Assembly (NCBI GenBank): GCA_031384385.1
Contig: JANNAN010000019.1
Coordinates: 1-53,785, forward strand
Length of the DNA stretch: 53,785 bases
Origin: Candidatus Tayloriibacteriota bacterium
GTDB taxonomy: Bacteria; Patescibacteriota; Minisyncoccia; Phycocordibacterales; PALSA-1337
Reading direction: 5' to 3'
Shown here: positions 1 to 39,846 of the stretch, piece by piece
How the letters are laid out: each line of letters opens with the position of its first letter
Position numbering within the stretch: position 1 is the first letter of the stretch
Position numbers and translations under genes: made by a program
Notes under the pieces: generated by a model
The model's input: only the letters and a program-made list of their open reading frames with translations
What the model was told of the DNA's origin: nothing
Database searches by the model: none

Positions 1-4
1 GTTA

Positions 5-829
5 ATGATTCTTATAGCCATCCTACTAGTTGGAGGTGCTTTTCTGATTGCAGAATACAGAAATAAAAAGGCGGAACTTATATATAACAGCGTAACAGTA
101 TCGACATCAACAACCTCAGATTATATAGAAAATAGTGATGATTGGAAAAAAATACTTCTAGATAATGATAAAAGTAGCTCAACAACGACAAAAGATTTAA
201 CGAAAAGGATAGCCGAGGAGCTAACTCAAACTGATTTTATAAGTCGTGATTTTTTTGCTAAATATATGGAGTTAAAACAAGTAGGTGATCCAAAAGACAA
301 ACTAAGCCAACAAGAGTTAATCAATGGAACACTTAGTAAATTAATTCTTGAAAAACCAACTTTGTACAAAATAGACATAGTTATTACCAATCCAAATAAT
401 AGTACTGAGTCCATAAAAAGCTATGGAAATAGTATAGGAACAATATTTAAAAAATATGTTGTTCGTGCAAGAAATGAAGCCCTTATAGCCAAGGAAGCTC
501 TCCAAAGAGACGGACTTGAAACACTGACAGAATTAGACCCAATCATTTTGAGTTATAAAAATATATTGGATGCTTTTATTAAAACTAGCGTCCCACAAAC
601 AATAGCAAGTACTCATCTTGATTTGATAAACTCAATAAGTAATGCTCTATTTATTGTACAATCTCTAAGAAAAATAGATAACGATCCCATCTTTGCTGTG
701 CAAGCATTAGGTCTTTATGCGGCTACATCTAGAAAACTTATTGATACACTTAAATCAATAAAGAATTATTCTACTCAGCTTCAAATAACATATGGCACAG
801 AAGAACCTGGATATTTTTTCTTAAAATAA
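5..829 (+). CDS. hypothetical membrane-anchored protein, first visible gene of the T4SS-like operon (the operon may continue upstream of the window edge)
   Basis: 274-aa ORF with an N-terminal hydrophobic helix MILIAILLVGGAFLIAEY. Its stop is 1 nt before the next start (829/831). No family recognised. Confidence 0.5.
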   Translation: MILIAILLVGGAFLIAEYRNKKAELIYNSVTVSTSTTSDYIENSDDWKKILLDNDKSSSTTTKDLTKRIAEELTQTDFISRDFFAKYMELKQVGDPKDKLSQQELINGTLSKLILEKPTLYKIDIVITNPNNSTESIKSYGNSIGTIFKKYVVRARNEALIAKEALQRDGLETLTELDPIILSYKNILDAFIKTSVPQTIASTHLDLINSISNALFIVQSLRKIDNDPIFAVQALGLYAATSRKLIDTLKSIKNYSTQLQITYGTEEPGYFFLK

Positions 830-830
830 A

Positions 831-2477
831 ATGATAAATCCAATATACAAAAAAATAGTTGCATTGATACTGATAATTTCTTTTATACTACCATATGCTC
901 TTATACCACAAAGAGCCAAGGCCACTGCACTAGTTTTTGACTACGCTAATTTAGGAACAAACCTTCTAAGTCTAATAGAAGAAGCTATCGATGCTGTAGC
1001 TAGTGTTGCGACAGAGATATCAGCCTATTTAAACTGGTTAAAAGAATATACACTAGACCCTCTAGCATTCCTTGTCGCCAAACAAATAGTGCGGCAAGTT
1101 AGTGCAAGTATTATAAACTGGATTAATAATGGTTTTGATGGAAGTCCATCATTCGTACAAAATCCTGGAGCATTCTTTCTTGATCTGGCAGATCAAATGA
1201 CTGGAGAATTTCTTGCCAAGAATGGAGGTCCCTTATCTGAATTGTGTTCTCCTTTTAGTATCGAATTAAAATTAGCATTAGCATTTAAGTATCACAGTAA
1301 GGGCCAGAAAAGATATGCCTGTACTTTAGGTACAATAATAAAAAATACAAAAAGTGCAGTAAAGAATGCATCAATAAATGGTTTCACCGCTGGTGATTTT
1401 AGACAAGGGGGTTGGCCAGCATTCACATCGATGACAATGGAGCCACAGAATAATATCTATACAGCTTATATGCAAACCGATGGAGAGCTTACTATACGAG
1501 TAGGAAATCTACAAATACAGAAGAAAGAGCAATTATCACAAGGTTCTGGATTTCTTTCATTCCCAGATCCATCATGTAGAAAACTAAGAAAAGCTGAAGC
1601 GGCAAGAGCACAAGACATTTATGATAATGGGGCAGAAGGTGAAGTTGACCCAAATTTGATTACGTTTAATGAAAAGAAAGAAACATGGTCTGCAGATACA
1701 TCATCCTGCCCTGTTACAACACCTGGGAGAGTCATCGCACAATCTCTTCAGAAGCAACTTGATTCTCCAACAGATGTTTTAAATCTTGCAGATGAATTTG
1801 CTGAAATAATTGATGCCCTAATTACACAACTTGTGACACAAATCCTACAAGCAGGTCTAAGTGCTGTAAGTGATAAAAATTCTTCTGGAACATCCTACAT
1901 AGACGAAACGATAAAAGATTTAAATGAAAATACACCAGAAGTAGAACAATTGAAGAAAGATTTATTAGGAAGAATGCCAGAATTTATAGATACAACCCTA
2001 AAATACAAGACCAATCGAGATGCGTCATTGAAATTCATGACTGATATTAATGATAATTATAAATTAGCAAAAGTATGTTATGAAAATAAGATTGCTATCG
2101 TGCCACAATACCTAACATCATATGAAATTAATATTGCCCAATCAAGAATTAGTGATATCGAGATAATACTATCTGAAAAACTTTCAACGACTACAGCACA
2201 CTTCTTAAGTCTCGCACAAAATGCACAATTTAGACTAGACAAACTTGCAAAAATGCAAACTGACATTACAGGAACAAAAACAATGATACAACTAAACGCT
2301 GTAAGCACAGAGTACATGAGACTTATAAGAAGTAGCGTACTGACGACTGCAATAGACGTAAAAAATTCTGCAGCTGATCTAACAAAAGTTAAAACTGACT
2401 TCGAAAATTATAATAGAGATGCAATAAATAAAGTTAATGAATGTCAAGGTTTTCCAGAAAATATTAGGGGAAATTAA
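831..2477 (+). CDS. hypothetical secreted/anchored protein of the T4SS-like operon
   Basis: 548-aa ORF with an N-terminal signal/anchor (IVALILIISFILPYALIPQRAKA). Tightly packed with its neighbours. No family recognised. Confidence 0.55.
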   Translation: MINPIYKKIVALILIISFILPYALIPQRAKATALVFDYANLGTNLLSLIEEAIDAVASVATEISAYLNWLKEYTLDPLAFLVAKQIVRQVSASIINWINNGFDGSPSFVQNPGAFFLDLADQMTGEFLAKNGGPLSELCSPFSIELKLALAFKYHSKGQKRYACTLGTIIKNTKSAVKNASINGFTAGDFRQGGWPAFTSMTMEPQNNIYTAYMQTDGELTIRVGNLQIQKKEQLSQGSGFLSFPDPSCRKLRKAEAARAQDIYDNGAEGEVDPNLITFNEKKETWSADTSSCPVTTPGRVIAQSLQKQLDSPTDVLNLADEFAEIIDALITQLVTQILQAGLSAVSDKNSSGTSYIDETIKDLNENTPEVEQLKKDLLGRMPEFIDTTLKYKTNRDASLKFMTDINDNYKLAKVCYENKIAIVPQYLTSYEINIAQSRISDIEIILSEKLSTTTAHFLSLAQNAQFRLDKLAKMQTDITGTKTMIQLNAVSTEYMRLIRSSVLTTAIDVKNSAADLTKVKTDFENYNRDAINKVNECQGFPENIRGN

Positions 2478-2480
2478 AAT

Positions 2481-4805
2481 ATGAAAAAACTATTAAATAC
2501 AGTACTTATAATAATAATTACATTCACAATAGCTAGTGTGGCTTTGATGCCGGAACAGGCGAATGCAAGTTGGTATTGTATATTTGCTCCAGGAGCATGT
2601 ATTGCTTCAGCTGGAATGGCCTTAATTCTAAACAGTTTCCTTGCTGATCTTGGCCAGATAATACTTAGTGTGTTTGCTGGTATTCTAAGTATTGCTGGTC
2701 TAGTATTAAATGTTTCTATAATATTATCAATGAATATTAAAGCTATATATGAAGCAACTCCAGCAATTGAAGATCTGTGGATAATAACAAGAAATCTATC
2801 GAGCATATTTATTATATTTGCTCTTATTTATACTTCTATAGCCACAATATTAGGTGTAGGCAGTACTGGCATAAAAAAATTAATCAGTAATATTATATTA
2901 GCTGGCCTATTAATAAACTTCAGTTTATTTTTTACAAAAGTATTAATCGATGGTTCAAATTTAATATCTTTACAATTTTATAGAGCAATAGCACCAGAAT
3001 CTCAAACAGCTAGTATTACAAAAGATACAATAGGAGACGTACTTACTAAATCATTTACAGATGGTGGAATCTCTAATGTATTCATGCATGGACTTAAAAT
3101 TCCAAAAATATATGGTAATAAGAAGGGGTTATTCGAAGTACAAGGAACAGAGTATTTTAAGATAATATTATCCACACTAATTGGATCAATATTGATGTTA
3201 TTCGCTGCCCTAAGTTTCTTCGCCGCAGCATTAATGTTTATTATCCGCTTGGTAATTCTTTTACTTCTTATGGGATTCTCTCCAGTATACTTTGCTGGAA
3301 TGATATTCCCAGACATAAAAAAAGATATGTCTGACAAGTGGGCTGAGTACTTAAAGCAACAACTTATTTTTATGCCTGTTTATCTATTCTTTATGTACTT
3401 TGCACTTCGTTTCATAAGCACAATAAATGCGAGTACCGGGGCAGAAGAAGGATTTTTTTCCGCTCTTGATAATGCACAAACAAAAGCATCAAAATCTGGC
3501 ACATCGGGAATCATGCTTTCTGTTGTTGGATTATGTTTACAATACACAATTGCTTTTATTTTGATAAATATCCCTCTAATAGCAGCAATAAAAACAGGTG
3601 GCAGCAAATGGTCTGAAAATTTTACAAAAAAAGCAGGGAAAACTATTGGTGGCTTCATCGGCCAACACTCAGTCGGCAGAGCAGCCAAGTTGGCGGGAGA
3701 TAAGGTGGCAACATCTAAGTGGGCAAGAAGTATGCCGAATCTTGCAACATTTGCAAATAAAAATCTTGCAAAAGTCTCTGGTGCTTCATTTGGTGGTTCA
3801 GCTAAGGGATATGATCAAAGATTTAAAAAATATTCCGAAGAAAGAAATAACTTTGTAACAAAGAGAATTGGCTTATCAGCAGATAAAGAAGAGGACATCG
3901 AAGAAAAAACTGGCGGCAAATTGGCAAAAGATCTAGTAGAACAACTAGCAGTACGCGATAAGGTGATGAACGAGAAGCAAGAAGAACTCTATAGCAAAAA
4001 TTTATCAGTTCTTGCCCAAGAAAAACAAACAGAACTGCACAATGATAATATTTCAGATATAGAGAATGGATACAACAATCAAATTTCTGCTCTTAACAAT
4101 AGAATTGCAGAAATGGAAAATGAACATAATAATAAAGTTAGTACACACAACAATAAGATTTCAGAAATTGAAAAAGAATACAACAGTCATGTTGATACAT
4201 TCGGATCCGGAACACCACTTGCTACAAATACAAAAGCAAAATTAGATCAAGCTCGAACAAATCTTGCTGCTGAAAATGCAGCATTTAAGAACAATGCTGC
4301 AAAAGCCCAATCAGATATTACATCTGCAAAAACAAGATTCAGAAATGACAATACAGAGGCTCAAGCAAATCTTGCAACAGCAAAAGCTGCACTAATTAAA
4401 ACTAACAGAGAAGCAGCTTCAGCAAAAGAAGAGGCAGATAAAGCGAAAACCGAAAGAGATAACTTATACAAATCCATAGAGGCAAAGGTAGAGCATGATA
4501 AAACGATCAAGGCAGGGGGGATAGTTAGCGAAAAAATAAAAGAAGAAATGAAATCAGTAAGCGATATTGAGGAAGCAATCAGAGTATCAATAAGAGAAGA
4601 AAAAAGAAAAGCCGTGTCCGAACAAATGGCGAAAGATCTAGACAGGGATTGGAATCCTTTTACTAGAGAGGCAAGTAAAGTAGCGGCGAATGAAATCAGA
4701 AAACAAAACAGTAAGAAGAGAGAACAGCTTGATATGGAAAAAATGTTCAAACAAGCATTTGAAGACAACAAACCCAAGGACGATAAGCCTAAAGACAGTA
4801 AATAA
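2481..4805 (+). CDS. VirB6/TrbL-like polytopic membrane protein with a long C-terminal coiled-coil/charged tail
   Basis: 774 aa. The first ~400 aa contain many hydrophobic helices, as in TrbL/VirB6 channel subunits. The last ~330 aa are Lys/Glu/Asn-rich heptad-like sequence (NGYNNQISALNNRIAEMENEHNNKVSTHNNKISEIEKEY...KPKDDKPKDSK). The gene lies in an operon with VirB4. Confidence 0.6.
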   Translation: MKKLLNTVLIIIITFTIASVALMPEQANASWYCIFAPGACIASAGMALILNSFLADLGQIILSVFAGILSIAGLVLNVSIILSMNIKAIYEATPAIEDLWIITRNLSSIFIIFALIYTSIATILGVGSTGIKKLISNIILAGLLINFSLFFTKVLIDGSNLISLQFYRAIAPESQTASITKDTIGDVLTKSFTDGGISNVFMHGLKIPKIYGNKKGLFEVQGTEYFKIILSTLIGSILMLFAALSFFAAALMFIIRLVILLLLMGFSPVYFAGMIFPDIKKDMSDKWAEYLKQQLIFMPVYLFFMYFALRFISTINASTGAEEGFFSALDNAQTKASKSGTSGIMLSVVGLCLQYTIAFILINIPLIAAIKTGGSKWSENFTKKAGKTIGGFIGQHSVGRAAKLAGDKVATSKWARSMPNLATFANKNLAKVSGASFGGSAKGYDQRFKKYSEERNNFVTKRIGLSADKEEDIEEKTGGKLAKDLVEQLAVRDKVMNEKQEELYSKNLSVLAQEKQTELHNDNISDIENGYNNQISALNNRIAEMENEHNNKVSTHNNKISEIEKEYNSHVDTFGSGTPLATNTKAKLDQARTNLAAENAAFKNNAAKAQSDITSAKTRFRNDNTEAQANLATAKAALIKTNREAASAKEEADKAKTERDNLYKSIEAKVEHDKTIKAGGIVSEKIKEEMKSVSDIEEAIRVSIREEKRKAVSEQMAKDLDRDWNPFTREASKVAANEIRKQNSKKREQLDMEKMFKQAFEDNKPKDDKPKDSK

Positions 4806-4811
4806 ACAATC

Positions 4812-5423
4812 ATGGATATAAAACAAATAATTAGTGAGAGATACAAAGTCCTACCTCGCAATATCCAAGCTGCGATTACTAGTACTGACCTTGCACCAAA
4901 ATTTCAAAAGATAGCTGACAAGCATAGTCTACATATTGATCAGAACAGTAATCTACAAACAGAAACAATACTGGTAATGCTTGGCCTTGAAACAGTTGAT
5001 GATTTCCTTGATAATGTACAAAAAGGACTAGAAATAAATCGAGAAAAAGCTATTCTAATTGCAAAAGATGTAAACACTGAAATATTAGATAGTATTCGTG
5101 AATCTCTTAAAAAAATACAGAAAGAACAAGAGGCGAGTAGTGCAAAGGAAGTAGAGAAGCTCAACATAACAAAGAGTGAGACCTCTGATTCATTAGATAG
5201 ATTTGCAGGAATTAAAATTGAAGAAAATCCACCATCTTCTTCGCCTCAATATAAAGAAGAGGGAATAAACAAGGATATTTTATTAAAAAACATAGAGGAC
5301 AAAGCTATTCCTATGGTTGATCATCTTCTAGAAAATCATATAAATAACCCTGTGCAAATAGAAATAAAAAAAGTTGAAGAAAAAAAACCATACACAACTG
5401 ATCCGTACAGGGAACAGTTTTAA
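4812..5423 (+). CDS. hypothetical acidic protein (T4SS-like operon)
   Basis: 203-aa ORF with no TM segment, Glu/Lys-rich. No family recognised. Confidence 0.5.
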   Translation: MDIKQIISERYKVLPRNIQAAITSTDLAPKFQKIADKHSLHIDQNSNLQTETILVMLGLETVDDFLDNVQKGLEINREKAILIAKDVNTEILDSIRESLKKIQKEQEASSAKEVEKLNITKSETSDSLDRFAGIKIEENPPSSSPQYKEEGINKDILLKNIEDKAIPMVDHLLENHINNPVQIEIKKVEEKKPYTTDPYREQF

Positions 5424-5444
5424 TAAGTATGTTAAAATAAAAGA

Positions 5445-5870
5445 ATGCAATATCAAGTTCCACAATTTATTGAAGTTGAGGACAAGATCTTTGGACCATT
5501 AACTCTAAAGCAATTCATTTATATTGCTGGAGGAGCAGGATTGGCATTCGTTGTTTATCAATTTTTGCCATCTATTCTCTTTTCAGCAATTCCAATAATT
5601 ATAATATTGGCATTCGCAGCTACATTGGCTTTCTATAGAGTAAATAATAAGCCATTTATTTACTTAGTAGAGTCTGCATTCAAATATTATACTTCAGCAA
5701 AATTATATATTTGGAAAAAGCAAGATAAAAAACCTAATGACAATCCAATTCAGGAGGCAAAACAATACGCAGGAATTATGGTTCCAAAAATATCAGATAG
5801 CAAACTAAAAGATCTTACATGGAGTTTGGATATAAAAGAAAGTATGTATAGTAATAAAAATCAAAAATAA
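5445..5870 (+). CDS. PrgI-family / VirB3-like small membrane protein
   Basis: 141 aa. The N-terminus YQVPQFIEVEDKIFGPLTLKQFIYIAGGAGLAFVVY is followed by a second TM helix, the typical PrgI/VirB3 architecture. It sits just upstream of VirB4, as in Gram-positive T4SSs. Confidence 0.65.
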   Translation: MQYQVPQFIEVEDKIFGPLTLKQFIYIAGGAGLAFVVYQFLPSILFSAIPIIIILAFAATLAFYRVNNKPFIYLVESAFKYYTSAKLYIWKKQDKKPNDNPIQEAKQYAGIMVPKISDSKLKDLTWSLDIKESMYSNKNQK

Positions 5871-5871
5871 A

Positions 5872-6504
5872 ATGACAGCAGTATCCAAAACAACACAAGA
5901 TTTTGTACCAATACAAGAAATACGAGATGGTATTGTGGTTCTTAAAGATGGTTCAATGAGATCACTTGTTCTCGCTTCATCTTTAAATTTCGCATTAAAG
6001 TCTGCAGATGAACAGACAGCCATAATTTCTCAATTTCAAAATTTTCTAAACTCCCTTGATTTCTCAGTACAAATATTCATCCAATCGAAAAGACTTGATA
6101 TAAGGCCATATATTGCTTTTCTTGAAGAAAGATACAAAGAGCAAGCAACCGAATTAATGAAAATACAAACAAGAGAATATATAGAATTTATAAGAACATT
6201 TGTTGATAATTCTAGTATTATGACAAAAAGTTTCTTTATTGTTATACCATATAGTCCTGCTGTGATATCCGCAAGTAAAAATCCACTAAGTTCTTTTCTT
6301 CATAAAGGGAAAAACGACAAGGAATTAATAAATACTCAATTTGAAGAGAGTAGGAGTCAGCTTGAGCAAAGAGTGGGTGTAGTAGAGCAAGGCTTGGTGC
6401 GTTGTGGAATACGCGTAGCAGAACTTGGAACGGAGGAAGTGGTAGAATTATATTATAAAATATTTAATCCTGGAGAAACAGAGAAGCCAATTCAAATAAA
6501 TTAA
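5872..6504 (+). CDS. hypothetical protein, resembles a detached VirB4 N-terminal domain
   Basis: 210 aa. The pattern FVPIQEIRDGIVVLKDGSMRSLVLASSLNFALKSADEQTAIISQFQNFLNSL resembles the N-terminal region of VirB4/PrgJ-type ATPases. The gene lies directly upstream of VirB4, with a 4-nt gap. Confidence 0.45.
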   Translation: MTAVSKTTQDFVPIQEIRDGIVVLKDGSMRSLVLASSLNFALKSADEQTAIISQFQNFLNSLDFSVQIFIQSKRLDIRPYIAFLEERYKEQATELMKIQTREYIEFIRTFVDNSSIMTKSFFIVIPYSPAVISASKNPLSSFLHKGKNDKELINTQFEESRSQLEQRVGVVEQGLVRCGIRVAELGTEEVVELYYKIFNPGETEKPIQIN

Positions 6505-6508
6505 AACT

Positions 6509-8341
6509 ATGAGTATATTTTCAAAATTATTTGGTAAAAAAGAAGAGTCTCCAATAGTCTCATTGATGCCACAAGAGATTTACGAGGCTGGAGTCCTTGA
6601 ATTAAAGGATGTTATTGCTCCTTCTGCCTTAAAAATAAGTCCAAAAGAACTAAATCTAGGCGAAAAAGTTGCTAGAACTTTCTTTGTTATTTCATATCCA
6701 AGATTTCTTACAGAAAGTTGGTTCGCTCCGATTATTAATCTTGATAAAATCTTTAATATTTCAATATTTATTCATCCAGTAGATACTGTAAAGATTCTGA
6801 GACATTTCCAAAAAAAAGTAGCAGAAGTTCAAAGTCAGATATCTACAAGAGAGGATAAGGGTCTAGTACGCGATCCAATGCTTGATACTGCATATCAAGA
6901 CCTTGAAGCACTTAGAGACAATCTAATGCAGGCTCAAGAGAAAATCTTTGATGTAGGAGTTTACATCACAATTTTTGGAGATAATAGTAATGAACTTGAT
7001 AAAATAGAATCCGAAGTAAAATCTATTCTCGAATCAAAACTTGTTTATCTTAAACCAGCCCTATTTCAACAAGAAAGTGGATACAAGAGTGTACTTCCAA
7101 TAGGGGATGATCAATTAGCAATACATTCAAAATTAAATTCATCACCACTTTCTAGTCTTTTCCCATTTGTTTCATTTGACCTTACATCTGATAAGGGAAT
7201 TTTATATGGAATAAATCGCCACAATTCTTCACTTGTGCTTTTTGATAGATTCTTGCTTGAAAATTATAACTCTGTAACATTTGCAAAAGCTGGATCTGGA
7301 AAATCATACTGTACAAAATTAGAAATACTTAGAACATTAATGTTTGATACAGAAGTTATTGTTATTGATCCAGAAAAAGAATACGAGTATATGGCGGAAG
7401 CAACTGGGGGTAAATATTTTAATATTTCTCTAAATTCAGAGCATCATATTAATCCATTCGATCTTCCAATTCCTCGTGAAGATGAGTCTGCTGCTGATGT
7501 TCTAAGATCAAATATTATAAACCTTGTTGGTCTATTTAGAATCATGCTTGGAGGTCTTTCCCAAGAGGAGGACGCTATTATTGACCGAGCCATCTCAGAG
7601 ACATATGCCTTAAAAGATATTTCTCCAGAATCCGACTTCAGAAATGTTGAGCCACCACTTCTTTCAGACTTTGAACTTGTACTTGCTGGTATGGAAGGTG
7701 CGCAATCACTTGTAGAAAGACTTACAAAGTATACAAAAGGAACATGGTCAGGATTTATTAATCGTCCATCAAATGTTGATATCGATAAGAAATTCGTAGT
7801 TTTCTCACTCAGAGATATGGAAGACGAATTGAAACCAGTGGCAATGTATATCGTTACTCATTATATTTGGAATGCAGTTAGAAAAGTTCTAAAAAAGAGA
7901 CTGCTGGTTATTGATGAGGCATGGTGGATGATGAAATCAGAAGATACAGCTTCATTTTTGCTTGGTCTAGCAAAAAGAGGAAGAAAATACTATCTAGGAC
8001 TAGCCACAATCACTCAAGATGTTGATGATTTCCTTAAATCTCCTTACGGGCTACCAATTATTACAAACTCTTCAATTCAAATTCTTCTTAAACAATCTCC
8101 ATCTTCTATTGATAATATTCAAAAGACATTCAACCTTACTGACGAAGAAAAATATCTACTATTAGAATCCGATGTAGGGGAGGGAATATTCTTTGTAGGA
8201 CTAAAGCATGTGGCACTAAAAGTTATTGCTTCATACACAGAAGATCAAATAATAACCACAAATCCCGCACAGGTTCTTCAAATTCAAAAAGCAAAAAGAG
8301 ATTTGGAGTCATCACAACAAGGCGGGGGAAGGGTACAATAA
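6509..8341 (+). CDS. virB4: VirB4/TraE/PrgJ-type type IV secretion ATPase
   Basis: 610 aa with Walker A FAKAGSGKSY and Walker B RLLVIDEAWWMM. Downstream GLATITQDVDDF is typical of VirB4-family AAA ATPases. Confidence 0.85.
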   Translation: MSIFSKLFGKKEESPIVSLMPQEIYEAGVLELKDVIAPSALKISPKELNLGEKVARTFFVISYPRFLTESWFAPIINLDKIFNISIFIHPVDTVKILRHFQKKVAEVQSQISTREDKGLVRDPMLDTAYQDLEALRDNLMQAQEKIFDVGVYITIFGDNSNELDKIESEVKSILESKLVYLKPALFQQESGYKSVLPIGDDQLAIHSKLNSSPLSSLFPFVSFDLTSDKGILYGINRHNSSLVLFDRFLLENYNSVTFAKAGSGKSYCTKLEILRTLMFDTEVIVIDPEKEYEYMAEATGGKYFNISLNSEHHINPFDLPIPREDESAADVLRSNIINLVGLFRIMLGGLSQEEDAIIDRAISETYALKDISPESDFRNVEPPLLSDFELVLAGMEGAQSLVERLTKYTKGTWSGFINRPSNVDIDKKFVVFSLRDMEDELKPVAMYIVTHYIWNAVRKVLKKRLLVIDEAWWMMKSEDTASFLLGLAKRGRKYYLGLATITQDVDDFLKSPYGLPIITNSSIQILLKQSPSSIDNIQKTFNLTDEEKYLLLESDVGEGIFFVGLKHVALKVIASYTEDQIITTNPAQVLQIQKAKRDLESSQQGGGRVQ

Positions 8342-8347
8342 TAGATT

Positions 8348-8770
8348 ATGGAAACAGAAAATCAACCCACAAAACCAAATTATAGAATGGGAAGAACATC
8401 AATAGTAATTATTGTATTCTTGGCTGGAGTGGCTGATCTTCTTTCTGTAATACCTTTTGTTGGAGATTTCATTAGTCCAATATTTTGGTTATTTGCTGCT
8501 GTATATTTTTGGAAAAATGGATTAGGAATGTTAAATCCCGGAAGACTTGCTACAAGCTTAATATCACTTGTAGCTGAAATTATACCATTTGTGCAAGCAT
8601 TGCCCACAATTTTTGCTGGTACTGTAGTAATAATAGTAATGTCTAGAATCGAAGATAGGACAGGTTTTTCTCTAAATCCATTGAAAAAGCCTGGGGTTAC
8701 TCCACCAAGAATGCAAAGAAGTGGGGTTAATACTACAGCGGGGATAAGACCACCTAATTCACAATTATAA
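8348..8770 (+). CDS. small polytopic membrane protein (T4SS-like operon)
   Basis: 140 aa with 3-4 hydrophobic helices (SIVIIVFLAGVADLLSVIPFV, ISPIFWLFAAVYFW, LISLVAEIIPFV, IFAGTVVIIVM). No family recognised. Confidence 0.5.
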   Translation: METENQPTKPNYRMGRTSIVIIVFLAGVADLLSVIPFVGDFISPIFWLFAAVYFWKNGLGMLNPGRLATSLISLVAEIIPFVQALPTIFAGTVVIIVMSRIEDRTGFSLNPLKKPGVTPPRMQRSGVNTTAGIRPPNSQL

Positions 8771-8790
8771 AGTGTGTTAAAATAAAGTAA

Positions 8791-9801
8791 ATGAAAAAGT
8801 TTTTAATTACAATTCTTACATTAATGTTTCTGCTCTCTTTTTCTTATACCAATGCTCAAATGAGTACATCGATTGATGGTATCACCATTACCAGTGTACC
8901 AATAAATCCTGAACCAGGAGAAAATGTAATAATATCTATTGAGAGTAGCTTGTTAGACTTAGATTCAGCTTCGACAGTGTGGCTTTCAAATGGTAAGAAT
9001 ATTTATAGTGGTATCGGTAAAAAAGAAATAATAGTGAAGGCACCTATGGGTGGTAAGAAATTAATCGTAACTGTTGTACTCAAAGATCATAACGGGAGAG
9101 AAGTACAAAAAGCAGTTGTTTTAAAATCTGGTTCAGTAGATTTAATATGGGAACCAATAAATTACACTCCTCCGTTCTACAAAGGAGTGGGGAATCTTGT
9201 ATATCAAAATAAAATTAAACTAATCGCAATTCCACATCTTTATTCAAGTGAGACAAAAGAATTAGATCCAAAAAATTTAGTCTATCAATGGAGATTGGGA
9301 GGTAAGTATATAGACGGAGCATCTGGTTATGGCAAACAAAGTATAACAATAGATGCTGGAGATATACCAAAACACCTAGATATCAGTATCGATGTTTATA
9401 ATCGTGAAGAAACACAAACCGCGGTTAAGAAAATTAGCCTTAAACCAAAAGAGCCTTCAGTATCGTTTTATGAAATGAATCCTCTCTATGGAATATATTT
9501 CAATAAAGCATTAAGCACGAAAATATCTTTAGAAGATTCAGAAATGACAATCCTATCCGCTCCCTTTGGTTTTAGCTTCAAAAAGAATCAATTAGTGTAT
9601 ACATGGTCAATAAATAATACAGAACAATCAAGTCTATCAAATAATCAGAGTATCACCCTTAGAAAAAAAGATGATACTAGCGGTTCTTCAGATATTAATG
9701 TTGAGGTAAGAAGCAATGAAAATATCATGCAAGGCGCACAATCTTCATTTGGTGTTGATTTCAAAAAAAAAGAAACGGTCAATAATAATAAAATATTTTA
9801 A
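8791..9801 (+). CDS. secreted protein with three tandem ~100-aa beta-rich repeats
   Basis: 336 aa with signal peptide MKKFLITILTLMFLLSFSYTNA. A recurring module is marked by STVWLSNGKNI / LVYQWRLGGKYI / LVYTWSINNTEQ. Confidence 0.55.
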   Translation: MKKFLITILTLMFLLSFSYTNAQMSTSIDGITITSVPINPEPGENVIISIESSLLDLDSASTVWLSNGKNIYSGIGKKEIIVKAPMGGKKLIVTVVLKDHNGREVQKAVVLKSGSVDLIWEPINYTPPFYKGVGNLVYQNKIKLIAIPHLYSSETKELDPKNLVYQWRLGGKYIDGASGYGKQSITIDAGDIPKHLDISIDVYNREETQTAVKKISLKPKEPSVSFYEMNPLYGIYFNKALSTKISLEDSEMTILSAPFGFSFKKNQLVYTWSINNTEQSSLSNNQSITLRKKDDTSGSSDINVEVRSNENIMQGAQSSFGVDFKKKETVNNNKIF

Positions 9802-9803
9802 AT

Positions 9804-10892
9804 ATGAAAAAGATATTCATTTATAGTTTAATAACATTACTTTTAATACCGCTAACAATAAAGACGGCAGATGCAAGAAATGATACATACACATTACTGG
9901 AGCCGTTGCCATGTATTGATGGAACAGAAAGTGAAAAATCAGCAAGCTGTGCTAAAAATAATACAGTTACAGATATGCCACTTGAAGATTATATAGGTTA
10001 TGTTTTTAAATTTGCTATTGCACTAGCAGCATTTTTGGCCGTAATTATGATTATATGGGGAGGATTTGAATATATGACCACAGAGGCCATAACAGGCAAG
10101 AGTGATGCTAGGAAAAGAATACAGGATGCTCTTACTGGATTATTAATGGTATTGGCTTCATATTTAATATTAAGAACAATAGACCCAAGATTGGTGGAGA
10201 TAAATACAAGCATACCAAAAATAGTTATCAAAACAGATGATGTTAGTAATTTTCTAGGTGCATTGGATCAAAGTTTGGCAGAAATAGCAAATGATGAAAG
10301 AGCGAAGATAAATGCGCTAGAGGACAAAATTGTTGCTAACAATTATAAAATTGAGGAATTAGAAAAAAAAGGGCTAAATTTAACGAGTGAAGAATTTATT
10401 GAGTTAGAAAATCTTAAACAAAAAAACGCGGACCACAAAAAAGAACAGGCGATAGTACTTACTGGGGGTACAGCAGCAAATCAAATGAGATTGATCGTAA
10501 ATTATGTAGACAATGCAACAGCCAAAGCAAGCATAGATAAAATGAATAACATATACGATAAAGCCATAGCGGGTTTGGATCCACAAAGAAATGCAGAAGA
10601 AATTAACGACCTTAAGACAAGGAAATCTTTCTTTGGTGAGCAAGGTGAATTTCAAAGAAACTTAGATGCAAATGGAACGGTTGTATATAAATCATATGCG
10701 ATAGGAGGAAGTGGTGGTAGTGAAATAATAAATAATACACCCTACTTAAAAGAGAAGCTGACTAACTATACAGCTCGTCTAGAAAATAATAAGAATTCAA
10801 GTATTAACGATCGAACATATACCGAGCTACTAAATACTAGAATAGAACAAATAAATAAAGTATTAGCGCCTAAAACACCTCCTAAACCCTAA
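9804..10892 (+). CDS. T4SS pilin-like (TrbC/VirB2-like, CPR T4SS_pilin type) protein with a ~230-aa C-terminal extension
   Basis: Signal peptide ...LTIKTADA, then a two-helix pilin core YIGYVFKFAIALAAFLAVIMIIWGGFEYMTTEAITGKSDARKRIQDALTGLLMVLASYLILRTI, then a long coiled-coil-like extension. Confidence 0.65.
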   Translation: MKKIFIYSLITLLLIPLTIKTADARNDTYTLLEPLPCIDGTESEKSASCAKNNTVTDMPLEDYIGYVFKFAIALAAFLAVIMIIWGGFEYMTTEAITGKSDARKRIQDALTGLLMVLASYLILRTIDPRLVEINTSIPKIVIKTDDVSNFLGALDQSLAEIANDERAKINALEDKIVANNYKIEELEKKGLNLTSEEFIELENLKQKNADHKKEQAIVLTGGTAANQMRLIVNYVDNATAKASIDKMNNIYDKAIAGLDPQRNAEEINDLKTRKSFFGEQGEFQRNLDANGTVVYKSYAIGGSGGSEIINNTPYLKEKLTNYTARLENNKNSSINDRTYTELLNTRIEQINKVLAPKTPPKP

Positions 10893-10897
10893 CCCCC

Positions 10898-12181
10898 ATG
10901 CGAAAATCATATTTCATCATCATAATAATTGTAGTAATCGGCCTGATAGCAACTGGTATGTATTATTTCTTTTACAAAAATGCAATACTAACTGATCCAA
11001 ATAATCCGCCACAACCATTTAGTTTTAATCCATTTAGCAGAGGAGGGGAAACAAATACATCAGTGCCAAAATATGCTTCAAGTACAGAAGTAGTTAAAAC
11101 AAATACTCAAAATGATACACCAGTAAAAATGCCTAAGTTAAGACAATTAAGCTCAACTCCAGTTGGTGGAATGTCTGCTAGTACAACAATGATAAGATCT
11201 CTTACTTTAGCCAGCACAACATACGAAGCAACTATTGTTAGATTTATTGATAGAGGAACAGGACATATATATCAAGCAAACGATATTAATCTTGGTATAA
11301 ATAAAATAACAAATACAACATTACCCAAGATTTATGAAAGTTACTGGAATAAAAATTCAAATACTTTAATATTACGATATTTAAAAGAAAATACAGATAA
11401 AATTACAAATTTTTATGCAGAAATAAGATCTGTGGGAAGTTCTACGGCATCAACAACTAATATATCTGAAATAAAAGGGAAGTATCTCTCTTCAGATATA
11501 AAGGAAATTGCTGTTTCACCAGCTGGTGACAAAATTTTCACATGGAATATAGAAAATGATAATGGAAATGGATATATTTCTTCTTTTGATGAAAAAAATA
11601 AAGTAAAAATAGTAGACTCACCATTAACGCAAGTAAATATTGCTTGGCCAGAAGCTTCTACTGTTACATTTACAACAAAAGGTAACTCCCAAACAGCTGG
11701 ATATGCTTACAGTGCGAATACAAAAACTGGAGAAATAAAAAAACTACTAGGCGGAGTACCAGGTTTATCTGTGAAATTAAGTGCAGATGCAAAAAAACTT
11801 CTATATTCTATCGGTGGTGAAAAATTATCAATGGGTGTATTAAATATTAAAGACGGTAGTTCTAAAGCAATGATATTTTCTACACTTGCTGATAAATGTA
11901 TTTGGAGTACCCTAAGAAAAAATGAACTTTATTGTTCAGTGCCAACAGAAATACCAACAGCTGCATACCCCGAAGACTGGTATAAAGGAACTTTATCATT
12001 TGTAGACCAAATATGGCATATAGATACAGATACAGGGGAAGTTCATTTGCTTGCCAATCTTTTAACCTTATCAAATCAACTAATAGATGCTCAAGAATTA
12101 TCATTAGATTCAAAAGAGAACTTCCTATACTTCATGAATAAAAGGAATTTGAGCCTGTGGTCATTGGATCTTAATCAATAA
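10898..12181 (+). CDS. membrane-anchored hypothetical protein, possibly beta-propeller-like; last gene of the T4SS-like operon
   Basis: 427 aa with N-terminal anchor YFIIIIIVVIGLIATGMYYFFY and a beta-rich remainder. No family recognised. Confidence 0.5.
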   Translation: MRKSYFIIIIIVVIGLIATGMYYFFYKNAILTDPNNPPQPFSFNPFSRGGETNTSVPKYASSTEVVKTNTQNDTPVKMPKLRQLSSTPVGGMSASTTMIRSLTLASTTYEATIVRFIDRGTGHIYQANDINLGINKITNTTLPKIYESYWNKNSNTLILRYLKENTDKITNFYAEIRSVGSSTASTTNISEIKGKYLSSDIKEIAVSPAGDKIFTWNIENDNGNGYISSFDEKNKVKIVDSPLTQVNIAWPEASTVTFTTKGNSQTAGYAYSANTKTGEIKKLLGGVPGLSVKLSADAKKLLYSIGGEKLSMGVLNIKDGSSKAMIFSTLADKCIWSTLRKNELYCSVPTEIPTAAYPEDWYKGTLSFVDQIWHIDTDTGEVHLLANLLTLSNQLIDAQELSLDSKENFLYFMNKRNLSLWSLDLNQ

Positions 12182-12188: not shown

Positions 12189-12908
12189 TTATAGTGGCTG
12201 ATGCTTATTTAAATGTCTTCTAACAATCAATTCTTGTCCTAATGTAAATAAACTACTAACTGTCCAGTAAAGTGCTACAATTGCTGAAATTTTATAAGAA
12301 ATAAAGAAAATCATAACTGGAAAAACATACTTCATATTTTTCATCATATTTTGCACCATATCAGCCTGAGAATTTGAAGCATTGTTTTGTGTTGAATTAG
12401 AAGAAACAGAGAAATGTAGTTGTAAGAACTGTGCTATCGCAGCTATTAGGGCCAGCGGGATACTTTTTAAACTGATATCAAACAAACCAAGAAAATGCAT
12501 GCTTATATTTGGGCTTATAGCAGAGTATAATAAACTTGTTTGTATTATGGGAAGCCCAGATCTAACAAAAATTGAATACAATGCAAAGATTATGGGAAGT
12601 TGTAAAAATAAAAACAAGAAACTAGATAATGGATTGACTCCTTTTTCTTTATAAAGAGCCATAACTTTTAATGCTTGTTGCTGTCGATCTGGAACAGTTT
12701 TTTTTAAATTTTCTAGGGCTGGCTGTATTTCTTTCATTCTAACTTGGGTAACGATTGCCTTTTTTGAAAGAGGGAAGAGAATAAGTCTAACTACAATTGT
12801 AAAAATTATAACAGCGATTCCCGCATCCATCCATGGAAATAAATGAATTAAATAAATAAGCCCATTATAAAGTGGGACAAAAACAAAGGTATTGTATAAA
12901 TATGACAT
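12189..12908 (-). CDS. yidC: membrane protein insertase YidC (short form)
   Basis: 239 aa, with LILFPLSKKAIVTQVRMKEIQPALENLKK...YKEKGVNPLSS typical of YidC/Oxa1. Conserved rpmH-rnpA-yidC synteny. Confidence 0.85.
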   Translation of the reverse strand: MSYLYNTFVFVPLYNGLIYLIHLFPWMDAGIAVIIFTIVVRLILFPLSKKAIVTQVRMKEIQPALENLKKTVPDRQQQALKVMALYKEKGVNPLSSFLFLFLQLPIIFALYSIFVRSGLPIIQTSLLYSAISPNISMHFLGLFDISLKSIPLALIAAIAQFLQLHFSVSSNSTQNNASNSQADMVQNMMKNMKYVFPVMIFFISYKISAIVALYWTVSSLFTLGQELIVRRHLNKHQPL

Positions 12909-12918: not shown

Positions 12919-13254
12919 CTACTTCAAAAGACCTGATTTAACAAAGATTTTTTCTATTTCATTAGATAATTCAGTAAAATCAACTTTCTCTGAGTCATTT
13001 TTCATTATAAAAACCACATTTTTACCAGAAATTAATTTACTTTGAAGCTTTCCAAGTATCGAATAAACTCTTCTTCTTGTCTTATTTCTTTCTACAGATG
13101 TCTTTGATACTTTCTTAGGGACAGATATACCAAAACGGCTTAAACCTTGAACATCCAAGCATCTTACAGTAAAAAAATGTCCATGAAAAGCTATACCTTT
13201 CTGTATAATTTCTTTAAAAAGTTTAGTGTTCAGCCTCTTTGATCTAGAGATCAT
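12919..13254 (-). CDS. rnpA: ribonuclease P protein component
   Basis: 111 aa, basic, with FGISVPKKVSKTSVERNKTRRRV. Lies immediately downstream of rpmH. Confidence 0.8.
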   Translation of the reverse strand: MISRSKRLNTKLFKEIIQKGIAFHGHFFTVRCLDVQGLSRFGISVPKKVSKTSVERNKTRRRVYSILGKLQSKLISGKNVVFIMKNDSEKVDFTELSNEIEKIFVKSGLLK

Positions 13255-13255
13255 A

Positions 13256-13390
13256 TTATACCGCTATCTTCTTTCGTCCCTTTGTTCGGCGGCGTCTAAG
13301 AACATTGCGTCCTCCTGGTGTCTTTGTACGAACAAGAAAACCGTGTGTTTTTGAGCGCTTTCTTTTCTTTGGTTGATATGTAAATGACAT
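13256..13390 (-). CDS. rpmH: 50S ribosomal protein L34 (missing from the ORF track because it is under 60 aa)
   Basis: Manual minus-strand translation gives [44 protein letters not shown] followed by a stop. This is a canonical L34 sequence in the canonical position upstream of rnpA. Confidence 0.9.
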
Positions 13391-13528
13391 AGTTCAGATA
13401 CTATACATTATGACAGATAAAAATTCAAGGTTTAGTATAAGCGTGAGAAGTTCGTAAGCGAAAAGTTGCTTTTTTCGGAACTTGTGAGAAAAAACAACCT
13501 TTTCGCATTAAAGAACTTTCAAAATTGG

Positions 13529-13567
13529 TTGTCCACAACTTATCAACATGGTTATAAGATTTCCACA
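13529..13567. promoter_or_regulatory. cluster of three same-orientation DnaA-box-like 9-mers upstream of dnaA (oriC part 1 / dnaA autoregulation)
   Basis: TTGTCCACA (13529-13537), TTATCAACA (13540-13548) and ATTTCCACA (13559-13567), compared with the consensus TTATCCACA. All lie within 75 nt of the dnaA ATG. Confidence 0.55.
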
Positions 13568-13603
13568 AGTTTGCTATTTTACAAACAAGTATATAATTGC
13601 CTC

Positions 13604-14950
13604 ATGAAAGATTATACAGAACTATGGGAAAGAGCTCTTGTCGAAATAGAATTAGCAGTTTCTCATGCAAACTTTTCTACTTGGTTTAATGGAACTTATA
13701 TTATAAAACAAGAAGAGGGTGTGATATTTTTAGGTGTTCCCAATCCATTTATACAAGAATGGTTATATAAAAAATTTCACAATGTTATTTTAAGAACATT
13801 GAGACAGCTGAATGATCAAGTTCGCGGTTTAGAATATACAATTGCTAAGGATTCTGATAAGAAAAAAGAGGGTGATGACAAAAAAACTAATCCTAGCCCA
13901 ACAATATCAATGCCTCTGCAAGATTTTTATATAAATAAAGATGATAATCTAAATCCTAGATATCTTTTTGACAATTTTGTTGTTGGACCATTCAATGAAC
14001 TAGCCCACGCTGCTTCAAAAAGTGTTATAAAAAACCCAGGCTTTGCTTATAATCCATTATTCATTTATGGAAATACCGGCCATGGAAAAACTCATCTTAT
14101 ACAAGCAATAGGAAATCATATTAAGAAAGATTTTCCACAAAAAAAAGTATTCTACCTGACATCCGAAAGATTTGGTTCAGAATATTTTTCTTCACTCCAA
14201 ACAAATACAGCACAGAAGTTTAAAGAGAAGTATAGAAAATACGATGTTATTATAATGGATGATATTCAGTTTTTTGCTAGTAAAGAAAAATTTCAAGAAG
14301 AACTATTTCATTTATTTGAAACTTTTTACCAATCAAATAGGCAATTAGTATTTTCTTCTGATAAACATCCAAATTTTATACCTGGTCTTGAAGATAGACT
14401 TAAGTCTCGTTTTGGACAGGGAATGATTATAGATATTCCTGCTCCAGATCATGAATCAAGAATGGCTATACTAAAGGCCAAAGCATTATTAAGTAATATA
14501 GATTTGGAGTCTGAAATTCTTGATTTTCTAGCTGTAAATATAGAGAGCAATGTAAGAGAGCTTGAGGGTGTTGTTAATGCTATTGTTTGTCAAACTCAAT
14601 TAAAAAATCGACCACCGACATTATTGGAGGTAAAGAATTTAATTAAAAATAATACGAAACCAAAGAAAAATATACCAATCAAAGATGTTATAAAGTTAGT
14701 TTCTAGTTTTTATAATATTTCTGAAGAAAATGTATTCAATAAAACTAGAAAAAAGGAGGTTGTTAAACCGAGACAGGTAATTATGTATATTCTTCGAGAA
14801 GATTTTAATATTTCATTCCCATCTATAGGTGAGAAGCTTGGTGGTAGAGATCATACGACGGTTATTCACTCTTGTGAGAAAATAAAAGAGGATTTAAAAA
14901 CAAACAGTTTGCTTATGGATGAAATTTCTCAGATACGCGCAATGCTCTAA
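13604..14950 (+). CDS. dnaA: chromosomal replication initiator DnaA
   Basis: Walker A GNTGHGKTHL, Walker B VIIMDDIQFF, and C-terminal DNA-binding helix GGRDHTTVIHSCEKI. I moved the start to the ATG at 13604 (MKDYTELWERAL...) because the ORF-track extension to 13466 would run through the DnaA boxes. Confidence 0.9.
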   Translation: MKDYTELWERALVEIELAVSHANFSTWFNGTYIIKQEEGVIFLGVPNPFIQEWLYKKFHNVILRTLRQLNDQVRGLEYTIAKDSDKKKEGDDKKTNPSPTISMPLQDFYINKDDNLNPRYLFDNFVVGPFNELAHAASKSVIKNPGFAYNPLFIYGNTGHGKTHLIQAIGNHIKKDFPQKKVFYLTSERFGSEYFSSLQTNTAQKFKEKYRKYDVIIMDDIQFFASKEKFQEELFHLFETFYQSNRQLVFSSDKHPNFIPGLEDRLKSRFGQGMIIDIPAPDHESRMAILKAKALLSNIDLESEILDFLAVNIESNVRELEGVVNAIVCQTQLKNRPPTLLEVKNLIKNNTKPKKNIPIKDVIKLVSSFYNISEENVFNKTRKKEVVKPRQVIMYILREDFNISFPSIGEKLGGRDHTTVIHSCEKIKEDLKTNSLLMDEISQIRAML

Positions 14951-14963: not shown

Positions 14964-15167
14964 TGTGGAAAAGATGTGAATGACTGTTGATTAGTTGGTA
15001 ATAAAATAATAAATTAAAAAATTAATAAAAAGTTATGAGAAATATAAAAAAAATAATCCACAACATAGGAAACAATTATAAGCCTAAAGAAAAGGGTATT
15101 GTGGAGTTATCACCATATCCACAGGACTAATAATAATAATAAGTATTTATATATATAAAAAACAAAT
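14964..15167. promoter_or_regulatory. candidate oriC (dnaA-dnaN intergenic): DnaA boxes plus AT-rich unwinding-element candidates
   Basis: Boxes: TGTGGAAAA (14964-14972, reverse complement TTTTCCACA), TAATCCACA (15054-15062) and ATATCCACA (15115-15123). Almost pure A/T stretches at 15001-15053 and 15127-15167. Confidence 0.6.
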
Positions 15168-16274
15168 ATGAAAATAGAATGTGTACAAGAAAAATTAAAA
15201 ATAGCGATAGGGTATGCAGAGAAAATTGCAGGTAAACATATGACATTGCCTGTCTTGTCATGTCTCCTTATTGATGCTTCTTCAAAAAATAATTTAATTA
15301 TTAAAGCTACGAATCTAGATTTGGGTATTGAAATTTCAATACCAGCCAAAATTGACGAAATAGGAGTTGTTGCTGTTCCAGCTCAAATTATAAATTCTTT
15401 CGTAGGAGGCGTTATAAGAGATGAAAAAGGAGTTTCATTGATAATGGAGCAAAGTAATCTTAAAGTAACAACCTCGCACAGTTCTGGGGTTATAAAGACC
15501 ATGCCAGCAGACGACTTCCCAAGTATTCCTAGAATATCAGATGAAAATAATTTTTATATAAATGGAAGTGATTTTGTTAAGGGATTAAAATCTGTGGCTT
15601 ACAGTTCTTCTATTTCAAGTATTAAACCAGAATTATCCAGTGTTTATATATACTGCGAAGATGAATTTGTTGTATTTGTTGCTACAGATTCGTTTAGACT
15701 TGCAGAAAAAAGAATTAAAATTAAAAAAAGTAAGGATTTTGGACAAATTCTTATTCCGTTCAAGAACATTCCAGAAATTATAAGAATTTTAGAATTAATA
15801 AACGATGAAGTTGAGGTTAATCTAAATAAAAATCAAATATCATTTAATTATAAAGGTATTTACTTGGTTTCAAGAGTAATAGATGGTGTTTTTCCAGATT
15901 ATAAACAAATTATTCCAAAAACAAATACAACAGAAATCACTCTATTGAAACAAGACCTTATAAGTGCTCTAAAATTATCAAATATTTTTTCTGATAAATT
16001 TAATCAAATCAATTTTAAAATTGATTCTATAAATAAAAAATGCGAAATTAAAACAAAAAATAGTGATATTGGAGAAAATACAACAGTACTGGAAGCTTCT
16101 ATTTCGGGAGATGGTATAGAGATAAATTTTAATTATAAATATATTATTGATTGTTTTCAATCTATAGATTCAGATAGTGTTACTTTATATTTTGGAGGAT
16201 TGAACAGACCTATGGTTATTAGTCCTGTTTCTGATAATTCTTTTAGATATTTAGTAATGCCAATGAATAGATAA
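15168..16274 (+). CDS. dnaN: DNA polymerase III beta sliding clamp
   Basis: 368 aa. The position after dnaA, the three-domain length and the C-terminal RYLVMPMN all fit DnaN. Confidence 0.85.
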   Translation: MKIECVQEKLKIAIGYAEKIAGKHMTLPVLSCLLIDASSKNNLIIKATNLDLGIEISIPAKIDEIGVVAVPAQIINSFVGGVIRDEKGVSLIMEQSNLKVTTSHSSGVIKTMPADDFPSIPRISDENNFYINGSDFVKGLKSVAYSSSISSIKPELSSVYIYCEDEFVVFVATDSFRLAEKRIKIKKSKDFGQILIPFKNIPEIIRILELINDEVEVNLNKNQISFNYKGIYLVSRVIDGVFPDYKQIIPKTNTTEITLLKQDLISALKLSNIFSDKFNQINFKIDSINKKCEIKTKNSDIGENTTVLEASISGDGIEINFNYKYIIDCFQSIDSDSVTLYFGGLNRPMVISPVSDNSFRYLVMPMNR

Positions 16275-21124: not shown

Positions 21125-21147
21125 ATATATATTATATAAATTTAAAT

Positions 21148-21681: not shown

Positions 21682-21690
21682 ATATTTAAT

Positions 21691-38030: not shown

Positions 38031-38064
38031 AACTAATATAAACTATGCAATATTTTATACTTTT

Positions 38065-39591: not shown

Positions 39592-39699
39592 AAGATTTAT
39601 AATTAAATTATAACATCTTCTATATAAAATGCGAAACCTTAATTTTATTTATCTAAATAAAATTAGATGAGAATTATGTCTGAATAGTTACAAAGCAAT

Positions 39700-39797: not shown

Positions 39798-39808
39798 AAT
39801 GCAATAAT

Positions 39809-39834: not shown

Positions 39835-39846
39835 TTTTTAATTATG

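Follow-up and report, generated by a model that had tools for sequence, protein, structure and literature searches.

A relaxase-free type IV secretion gene cluster beside dnaA in a Candidatus Tayloriibacteriota contig and its conservation among Paceibacteria relatives

The contig JANNAN010000019.1 of a Candidatus Tayloriibacteriota bacterium (assembly GCA_031384385.1), whose 53,785 nt were analysed as a whole and are hereafter called the window, opens with a series of tightly packed plus-strand open reading frames (ORFs) in region 1-12181, named g1 to g11 in order. We consider it very probable that this cluster encodes a chromosomal, vertically inherited and relaxase-free type IV secretion system (T4SS) of Patescibacteria, in the Paceibacteria arrangement, derived from a monoderm machinery of the MPF-FATA class (MPF, mating-pair formation) and CD1110 type, and serving a host-attached life. 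The original prediction, made from the letters of the window, had placed the cluster among a general type of locus widespread in the candidate phyla radiation and linked to host-dependent growth. This is well founded: two publications (PMC10633639 and PMC12102498) and syntenic metagenome-assembled genomes (MAGs) of Paceibacteria/Parcubacteria point the same way. The novelty that it implied does not stand, as the system was already described in papers of 2023–2025; the window is a further genome's copy and nothing categorically new.

Relatives were sought among GTDB species, each represented by a single genome, and this gave at least 590 VirB4 matches; the best 80 were analysed, and the coverage of the locus among them varies by gene. 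The recognised core of the cluster includes g7 (6509-8341, plus strand), which encodes the central and C-terminal ATPase domains of a VirB4-family protein. It matches positions 178-732 of NF045971, the NCBIfam model of the CD1110 family (2.4e-110, 370 bits for a cut-off of 325), as well as the TraG P-loop model PF19044 (8.8e-27), and both of the motifs on which the VirB4 call had leaned are intact: Walker A, AKAGSGKS, at residues 259-266 and Walker B, LLVIDE, at residues 465-470. A weak match to the CedB DNA-import model is also found (8e-08, 31 bits for a cut-off of 700). Just before it, g6 (5872-6504, plus strand) encodes a TrsD-like protein, the equivalent of the N-terminal domain of a full-length VirB4 carried by a separate gene. 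It matches NF041427 (TrsD) at 2.7e-7, and its matches to three VirB4 models fall in their N-terminal 150-280 positions (101-282 of VirB4_plasma, 1-147 of CD1110), which bears out the likeness to a VirB4 N-domain noticed earlier. Judging from these matches, g6 and g7 together are a full-length VirB4 split over two genes. As g6 is kept as a separate ORF in 79 loci, this split is no sequencing artefact.

The two other recognised components are small or variable proteins. The g5 product (5445-5870, plus strand) is a PrgI/VirB3-like membrane protein with two transmembrane helices, as had been proposed: it matches PF12666 (PrgI) at 8.2e-11, with 42.7 bits for a cut-off of 27, and its orthologues are 48-92% identical. 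The pilin proposed at g10 (9804-10892, plus strand) comprises a VirB2-type T4SS pilin domain and a hydrophilic C-terminal extension. Taken alone, the window copy stays under the cut-off of PF18895 (T4SS_pilin; 3e-4, 21.1 bits against 26.6), whereas 43 of 45 orthologues match this family (best 4.7e-10) and 3 also match TrbC/VirB2; the assignment is carried by the orthologues rather than by the window protein. Only the N-terminal part of g10 is conserved, with a signal peptide, a YTLLxPLP motif and a two-helix hydrophobic hairpin (residues ~58-125), while the extension, of about 240 aa, varies in sequence and length: the orthologues range from 106 to 628 aa. One of them shows weak CHAP and Peptidase_M15_4 matches (E ~2.5e-3), a hint that pilin and wall hydrolase may occasionally be fused.

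The case of g3 (2481-4805, plus strand) is more delicate. Hydropathy predicts about 8-10 transmembrane helices in residues 1-375 of this polytopic membrane protein, which ends with a long, charged, coiled-coil tail. The VirB6/TrbL-like identity first proposed for it is kept here as a putative one, on the grounds of its topology and of its position: the order polytopic protein-PrgI-x-VirB4 is the same as the order VirB6-PrgI-x-VirB4 of the plasmid pCDC3875. Direct comparisons gave no match of the window protein to the TrbL family of Pfam (a single orthologue reaches E 0.05) and an hhalign probability of 0.3% with the profile of the CD1112 VirB6 family, built from the Clostridium botulinum plasmid protein. 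The AlphaFold2 model of residues 1-450 is all-helical (predicted local distance difference test, pLDDT, 81; predicted template modelling score, pTM, 0.74). Searched with this model, Foldseek returned no match with an E below 0.4; chains of the R388 TrwI/VirB6 protein stand at ranks 2, 3, 21 and 23, not significantly (E 0.6-2, TM 0.17-0.29). A further candidate family, PF19590, is marked by precomputed annotation on 14 of 120 homologues of g3; it was absent from all six marked homologues that we rescanned and was discarded. On the other strand, overlapping the stretch that encodes the coiled-coil tail of g3, is an antisense ORF of 166 aa (4361-4861, minus strand), Ser/Leu-rich and of low complexity. 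Rather than a gene, this is most likely a side effect of the repetitive coding strand, which is rich in Lys, Glu and Ala.

Pfam, NCBIfam and PDB-profile searches of the 11 proteins recovered no relaxase, VirD4/TcpA, VirB11, VirB8/9/10 or peptidoglycan-hydrolase domain, in agreement with what had been read from the sequence by eye. Outside the cluster, the ten largest ORFs of the window gave no relaxase, coupling protein, VirB8/9/10, VirB11 or integrase; they are those of dnaN, a PBP1-type protein, a class I aminoacyl-tRNA synthetase, a PilB-like ATPase, PolA, a histidine kinase, an Ig-domain protein, a Gly-rich protein, an amidase and a Mur ligase. The amidase (41764-43026, plus strand), with Amidase_3 and PG_binding_1 domains, is the sole peptidoglycan hydrolase among the tested ORFs of the window. 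At a distance of 30 kb from the T4SS and amid Mur-ligase genes, it is probably a housekeeping enzyme and no substitute for VirB1.

A relaxase, coupling protein or origin of transfer (oriT) immediately upstream would nevertheless have turned the cluster into an ordinary integrated conjugative element, and it had been suggested that the operon may extend beyond the edge. As the window begins inside g1, this context is seen in relatives only. In 39 of 39 relatives' loci ksgA lies upstream of g1 on the same strand, directly adjacent to it in 19, including the four closest relatives, and in 35 of the 39 a UvrD/PcrA helicase gene precedes ksgA. Since ksgA, usually with uvrD/pcrA before it, holds this place, the T4SS-specific cluster would start at g1, with neither relaxase nor coupling protein upstream, and the non-conjugative reading is upheld in these genomes. 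What probably reaches over the edge is g1 itself: its ORF is open to the first positions of the window (in-frame TTA at 2-4) and the relatives start several codons further upstream, so that its 5' end is probably cut.

In about 20 of the 39 relatives, the more distant ones, a minus-strand gene pair stands between ksgA and g1 (for instance L072:1740-3212, L063:2411-3845 and L048:1041-2570); the four closest relatives lack it beside g1. The larger product is a secreted protein of ~350 aa with an N-terminal motif of the peptidoglycan-binding type, recognised by eye and not by a hidden Markov model (HMM), and with Ig-like PDB matches; the smaller one, of ~125 aa, is secreted and Cys-rich and has the motif PFGG...PCTC...FTPLY. 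We considered the ~350-aa protein as an analogue of VirB1 and rejected it: its matches are Ig-like only, and no hydrolase domain was found in it.

Downstream of g11, too, the locus is fixed. Among the best 80 of the at least 590 matches, whose VirB4s are 78-96% identical to g7, the order g1 to g11, yidC (minus), rnpA (minus), dnaA (plus) is the same in every sufficiently long locus. The accessory genes form a fixed set around the core, except that g8 is missing in about nine loci. The genomes are labelled as Paceibacterota, Parcubacteria, Taylor-, Zambryski-, Kaiser- or Wolfebacteria MAGs, or as generic Patescibacteria/"Saccharibacteria". The closest species-level relative among them has a VirB4 96% identical to that of the window and accessory proteins only 34-54% identical.

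This disparity is general. The median amino-acid identity to the window is 82% for VirB4, 65-66% for TrsD, 60% for DnaA, 57% for PrgI and 46% for YidC, and falls to 29-39% for g1, g2, g3, g4, g9, g10 and g11. VirB4 is more conserved than DnaA in all the loci that have both (49/49), by 12-26 points; the loci were ranked by VirB4 similarity, although this should affect the comparison little since it is made within each genome. In every gene the synonymous differences have reached saturation, the comparison with the closest relative included (pS 0.62-1.14, and 0.69-1.08 beside the pN of VirB4), while the nonsynonymous ones (pN) are only 0.04-0.15 for VirB4 against 0.27-0.53 for g2, g9 and g11. 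With synonymous sites saturated and pN low, the high identity of VirB4 reflects purifying selection and not recent transfer; recent horizontal transfer, which we considered as its cause, is ruled out by this saturation. On the whole the pattern indicates a vertical inheritance of the cluster under strong purifying selection, and the fast evolution of the exported proteins is as expected if they form a host-facing surface.

Around the core are placed six proteins of less evident nature. The g1 product (1-829, ORF 5-829, plus strand) is a membrane protein of the bitopic kind: its N-terminal transmembrane helix is accompanied by an extracytoplasmic domain of ~250 aa. Its position is conserved in 43 loci, with 23-47% identity, and calcium-binding TSP3_bac repeats occur in 8 of 32 orthologues (best 2.8e-10). 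It is bitopic and of a size suited to VirB8, yet no Pfam or PDB-profile family was found for it, the best PDB-profile match being a de novo designed protein (E 0.083). The g2 product (831-2477, plus strand) is a secreted protein of 548 aa. Its N-terminal domain, Cys/Trp-rich and strongly conserved, displays invariant Cys and Trp residues in orthologue alignments and the motif WINxGFxGSPxF. AlphaFold2 is confident only for residues 369-540, a C-terminal three-helix bundle, and not for the N-terminal domain; Foldseek proposes generic three-helix bundles only, and the PDB-profile search of g2 gave nothing significant, as was also the case for g1, g3, g4, g9 and g11. The N-termini of g2 orthologues match DUF4141, one of them (P0135) above the cut-off (31.7 bits against 30), and there is one TrbJ match at E 0.017; on these matches a VirB5/TrbJ-like nature of g2 is neither supported nor excluded.

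The g4 product (4812-5423, plus strand) is an acidic, soluble protein of 203 aa (pI 5.2) whose C-terminus bears a conserved DPYRE motif, and g8 (8348-8770, plus strand) encodes a small, basic, polytopic membrane protein with 3 transmembrane helices. The latter is a variable accessory gene: of 53 loci tested, 49 have a related small polytopic ORF after virB4, and in the nine loci L034, L035, L038, L040, L041, L051, L055, L057 and L076, g9 starts ~26-64 nt after virB4, which means that g8 is missing. We also compared g8 with the pilin and with PrgI/VirB3, of which it could have been a second copy or a paralogue, and rejected both (hhalign probability <2%). The three repeats seen in g9 (8791-9801, plus strand), a secreted protein, are real: they are Ig-like beta-sandwich units of ~105 aa, with repeat-to-repeat hhalign probabilities of 93.8, 93.1 and 77.3%. 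Orthologues of g9, present in 71 loci, show weak Ig_3, Big_2 and TIG matches. The last gene, g11 (10898-12181, plus strand), present in 54 loci, encodes an extracytoplasmic protein of 427 aa anchored by an N-terminal transmembrane helix (residues 1-19). Faint hints of TolB, PD40 and DPPIV_N (best TolB E 0.2) make it possibly a beta-propeller. The list of unnamed products first drawn up included three large secreted or anchored proteins; only two candidates for this description are present.

Compared with published systems, the cluster shows no essential difference from the Paceibacteria arrangement of the Patescibacteria-clade T4SS, as this is given by Quinonero-Coronel 2025 (PMC12102498). There, the VirB4s of Patescibacteria form a monophyletic clade related to MPF-FATA, TrsD and PrgI are abundant and relaxases nearly absent, VirB2-like pilins lie near virB4 in 1135 assemblies, and the typical neighbours of virB4 in Paceibacteria are dnaA, dnaN, rnpA, rpmH and ksgA. 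The window shares with these systems an MPF-FATA-related VirB4, an adjacent TrsD, a PrgI/VirB3 protein and a VirB2-like pilin near virB4, all relaxase-free and beside dnaA, rnpA, rpmH and, from its relatives, ksgA. Its own VirB4 is assigned to the clade by sequence matches rather than by a tree: the best curated model is CD1110, and the best 80 of at least 590 relatives are all Paceibacteria/Parcubacteria/Patescibacteria MAGs. Three details measured here do not appear in the passages of PMC12102498 that were consulted: the single pilin with a long and variable C-terminal extension, the fixed set g1/g2/g9/g11, and the conservation of VirB4 above that of DnaA.

The T4SS of Southlakia epibionticum (SEML1_0005-0019), an unusual one, was found essential for epibiotic growth by transposon sequencing; it has pilins and lacks coupling protein and relaxase (Wang 2023, PMC10633639). 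A homologue of the coupling protein exists elsewhere in the Southlakia genome and is not essential, according to PMC12102498. Both clusters contain VirB4, PrgI, large polytopic proteins (VirB6-like ones in Southlakia, the putatively VirB6-like g3 in the window), pilins of the T4SS_pilin type and an Ig-like exported protein, and neither has a recognisable relaxase or coupling protein inside it. Besides, the hypothetical protein SEML1_0009 adjoins the Southlakia VirB4, and we take it as the TrsD homologue reported in PMC12102498. On the other hand, the Southlakia cluster has an array of six short pilins, along with lysozyme-like proteins and an NTF2-like (VirB8-like) protein, whereas in the window the pilin is single and long, neither a hydrolase nor a VirB8-like protein is detectable, and the accessories differ (g1, g2, g4, g8, g11).

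The closest VirB4s on plasmids belong to Firmicutes and Actinobacteria; they are annotated as CD1110 family and are 28-37% identical. In C. botulinum pCDC3875 the order is VirD4, VirB6 (CD1112), PrgI, x, VirB4 (full length, 797 aa), x, SLT, with a MOBP relaxase too. The conjugative MPF-FATA systems (CTn2/CD1110 and pCDC3875, Trs of pGO1, Prg/Pcf of pCF10) thus share with the window a CD1110 VirB4 and the order polytopic protein-PrgI-x-VirB4, and TrsD, a component of the pGO1 type, is common to the window in the form of g6. They differ in having VirD4, a relaxase, an SLT or amidase hydrolase and a full-length VirB4 without VirB2 pilin; the window has a pilin, a VirB4 split over two genes and none of VirD4, relaxase and hydrolase. 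With the DNA importers, ComB of Helicobacter pylori and Ced of crenarchaea, the window has in common a VirB4-type ATPase operating without relaxase and coupling protein, but no subunit specific to ComB or Ced was recognised in it, and its CedB score (31 bits) is far from the cut-off of 700.

From these comparisons we propose the following scheme. The products of g3, g5, g6 and g7 would form a translocon in the cytoplasmic membrane, in which ATP hydrolysis by VirB4 would drive the extraction of the g10 pilin and its polymerisation into a tube or filament at the cell surface. This filament would carry the variable C-terminal domain of g10 on its exterior, and g1, g2, g9 and g11 may provide the parts that span the wall and contact the host. 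Such a machine would serve the obligate host-attached lifestyle through a traffic of macromolecules between parasite and host—export of effectors or import of host material—and not through conjugative transfer of DNA.

Other readings of the cluster have to be weighed. One of them sees in it an ordinary integrated conjugative element, whole or reduced to a remnant, whose relaxase, coupling protein and oriT would lie just outside the window. In its favour are the VirB4, which belongs to a family typical of integrative elements and plasmids of Firmicutes, and the upstream sequence, unseen as the window begins inside the first gene. We find this very improbable in view of ksgA, usually with uvrD/pcrA, at that place in every one of the 39 loci of relatives, and of the unvarying place of the cluster beside rpmH-rnpA-yidC and dnaA wherever the locus was retrieved (best 80 of at least 590). 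No integrase turned up in the cluster or among the ten largest ORFs outside it, the composition shows no shift, and a VirB4 more constrained than DnaA, with saturated synonymous sites, does not suit a mobile element. In PMC12102498, moreover, relaxases are near virB4 in only 15 genomes of the Patescibacteria dataset. Another reading limits the cluster to adhesion: a VirB2-type filament would attach to the host without any translocation. The large, variable and surface-exposed extension of the single pilin, extracellular partners that evolve fast and the absence of a coupling protein would all fit. These genomes, however, already have type IV pili (a PilB-like ATPase is encoded at 23010-24707 in the window), and a conserved, polytopic, channel-like protein together with a full VirB3/VirB4 module suggests translocation; a purely adhesive role seems improbable to us.

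More weight is due to the idea of a dedicated nucleic-acid uptake machine, comparable to H. pylori ComB or archaeal Ced, that would import host DNA or RNA for a cell unable to make nucleotides. The T4SS of Patescibacteria are presented in a 2025 review as notable newcomers of unknown function (PMC12857230), and a 2024 perspective considers the T4SS as a candidate route of nucleotide acquisition, comEC being dispensable (PMC11665869). A cultured member of Minisyncoccota/Patescibacteriota, strain OT8, takes up host RNA, and tubular structures of this strain, possibly T4SS pili, are reported to penetrate the host envelope (2026 preprint, bioRxiv 10.64898/2026.06.21.733656). The absence of relaxase and coupling protein fits an importer, as does, faintly, the match of VirB4 to CedB at 8e-08, far under its cut-off, and a VirB4 as extremely conserved as this one would suit a central part in nutrition. 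By contrast, no components specific to ComB or Ced were recognised, and the preprint itself calls the uptake mechanism unresolved; we hold import as a real, if minority, possibility. A more specific version, in which a T4SS-derived VirB2-type tube decorated by the variable C-terminus of the single pilin penetrates the host envelope and imports host macromolecules such as RNA or nucleotides, a feeding conduit in effect, appears rather unlikely at this stage. If this is true, VirB4 would belong to the core of the cell's nutrition, which would account for its evolving more slowly than DnaA across Paceibacteria.

Several points weigh against the relaxase-free, host-serving T4SS that we prefer. Homology of g3 with VirB6 could not be demonstrated, by profile or by fold. 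As neither a VirB8-like protein nor a wall hydrolase was found in the cluster, any envelope-spanning architecture is guesswork, and the formation of a pilus by a pilin with a C-terminal extension of 240 aa is an unproven proposal. No function is assigned to six of the proteins (g1, g2, g4, g8, g9 and g11). A coupling protein or a relaxase could be encoded elsewhere in the genome, beyond the 53.8 kb of the window. To our knowledge, there has been no experiment on any Paceibacteria T4SS. The requirement for growth on a host was shown for Southlakia only (PMC10633639), and homologues of VirD4 exist in many Patescibacteria genomes, mostly far from virB4 (PMC12102498).

Patescibacteria account for a sizeable part of the diversity of bacteria, and the means by which they draw resources from their hosts is a standing question; a relaxase-free T4SS is essential in the single genetically tractable species. 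The window provides a clean and fully syntenic Paceibacteria example with a list of 11 genes, in which a constrained ATPase module contrasts with fast-diverging exported parts. This parts list, the contrast in constraint and the single long pilin could guide the choice of targets in newly cultured Paceibacteria.

As to the layout of the cluster, the spacers from g1 to g11 measure 1, 3, 6, 21, 1, 4, 6, 20, 2 and 5 nt, and the stop of g11 is 7 nt from that of the convergent yidC; the dense packing on the plus strand (spacers of 1-21 nt) and this ending are exactly as predicted. The count is not: the twelve genes announced are 11, and no gap could hold a twelfth. Promoter-like and terminator-like sites are no more frequent within the cluster than in shuffled sequence, and its GC content (0.32-0.36) differs little from the values elsewhere in the window (mostly 0.29-0.36, except a GC-rich stretch at ~33-40 kb).

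Beyond g11 come yidC (12189-12908, minus strand; PF02096, 1.8e-39), rnpA (12919-13254, minus strand; PF00825, 1.8e-19) and rpmH (13256-13390, minus strand), a 44-aa ORF resembling ribosomal protein L34, recognised by eye rather than by HMM, which completes the classic arrangement rpmH-rnpA-yidC / dnaA-dnaN. Divergent from rpmH is dnaA (13466-14950 as listed, plus strand), followed by dnaN (15168-16274, plus strand). The listed dnaA ORF starts at a TTG, its DnaA_N domain begins only at residue 52 and two 9-mers resembling DnaA boxes fall within its first 30 codons (13529-13548); for the last two reasons the true start is probably an ATG near 13604. Three further such 9-mers are in the dnaA-dnaN spacer (14964-15123), making a cluster of five around dnaA. 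Over the whole window, the count of DnaA boxes is not above chance, and the cumulative GC skew has no clear minimum at dnaA. The proximity of an origin, claimed from the start, is therefore supported by the order dnaA/dnaN/rnpA/rpmH and not by these two signals, and we regard the position next to the origin as presumptive, from gene order.

Finally, two features more distant from the T4SS may be mentioned. About 11 kb from it, the PilB-like ATPase with T2SSE and MshEN domains (minus strand, 6e-116), which has neighbouring ORFs at 20639-22683 (minus strand), probably marks a type IV pilus cluster. Rfam finds tRNAs only, and no rRNA, in the window. At ~37000-40000 the GC content rises to 0.41-0.45, from ~0.31, with a strongly negative GC skew of -0.22 to -0.27; this region contains an ORF of 508 aa (38065-39591, minus strand) that matches Gly_rich_2.

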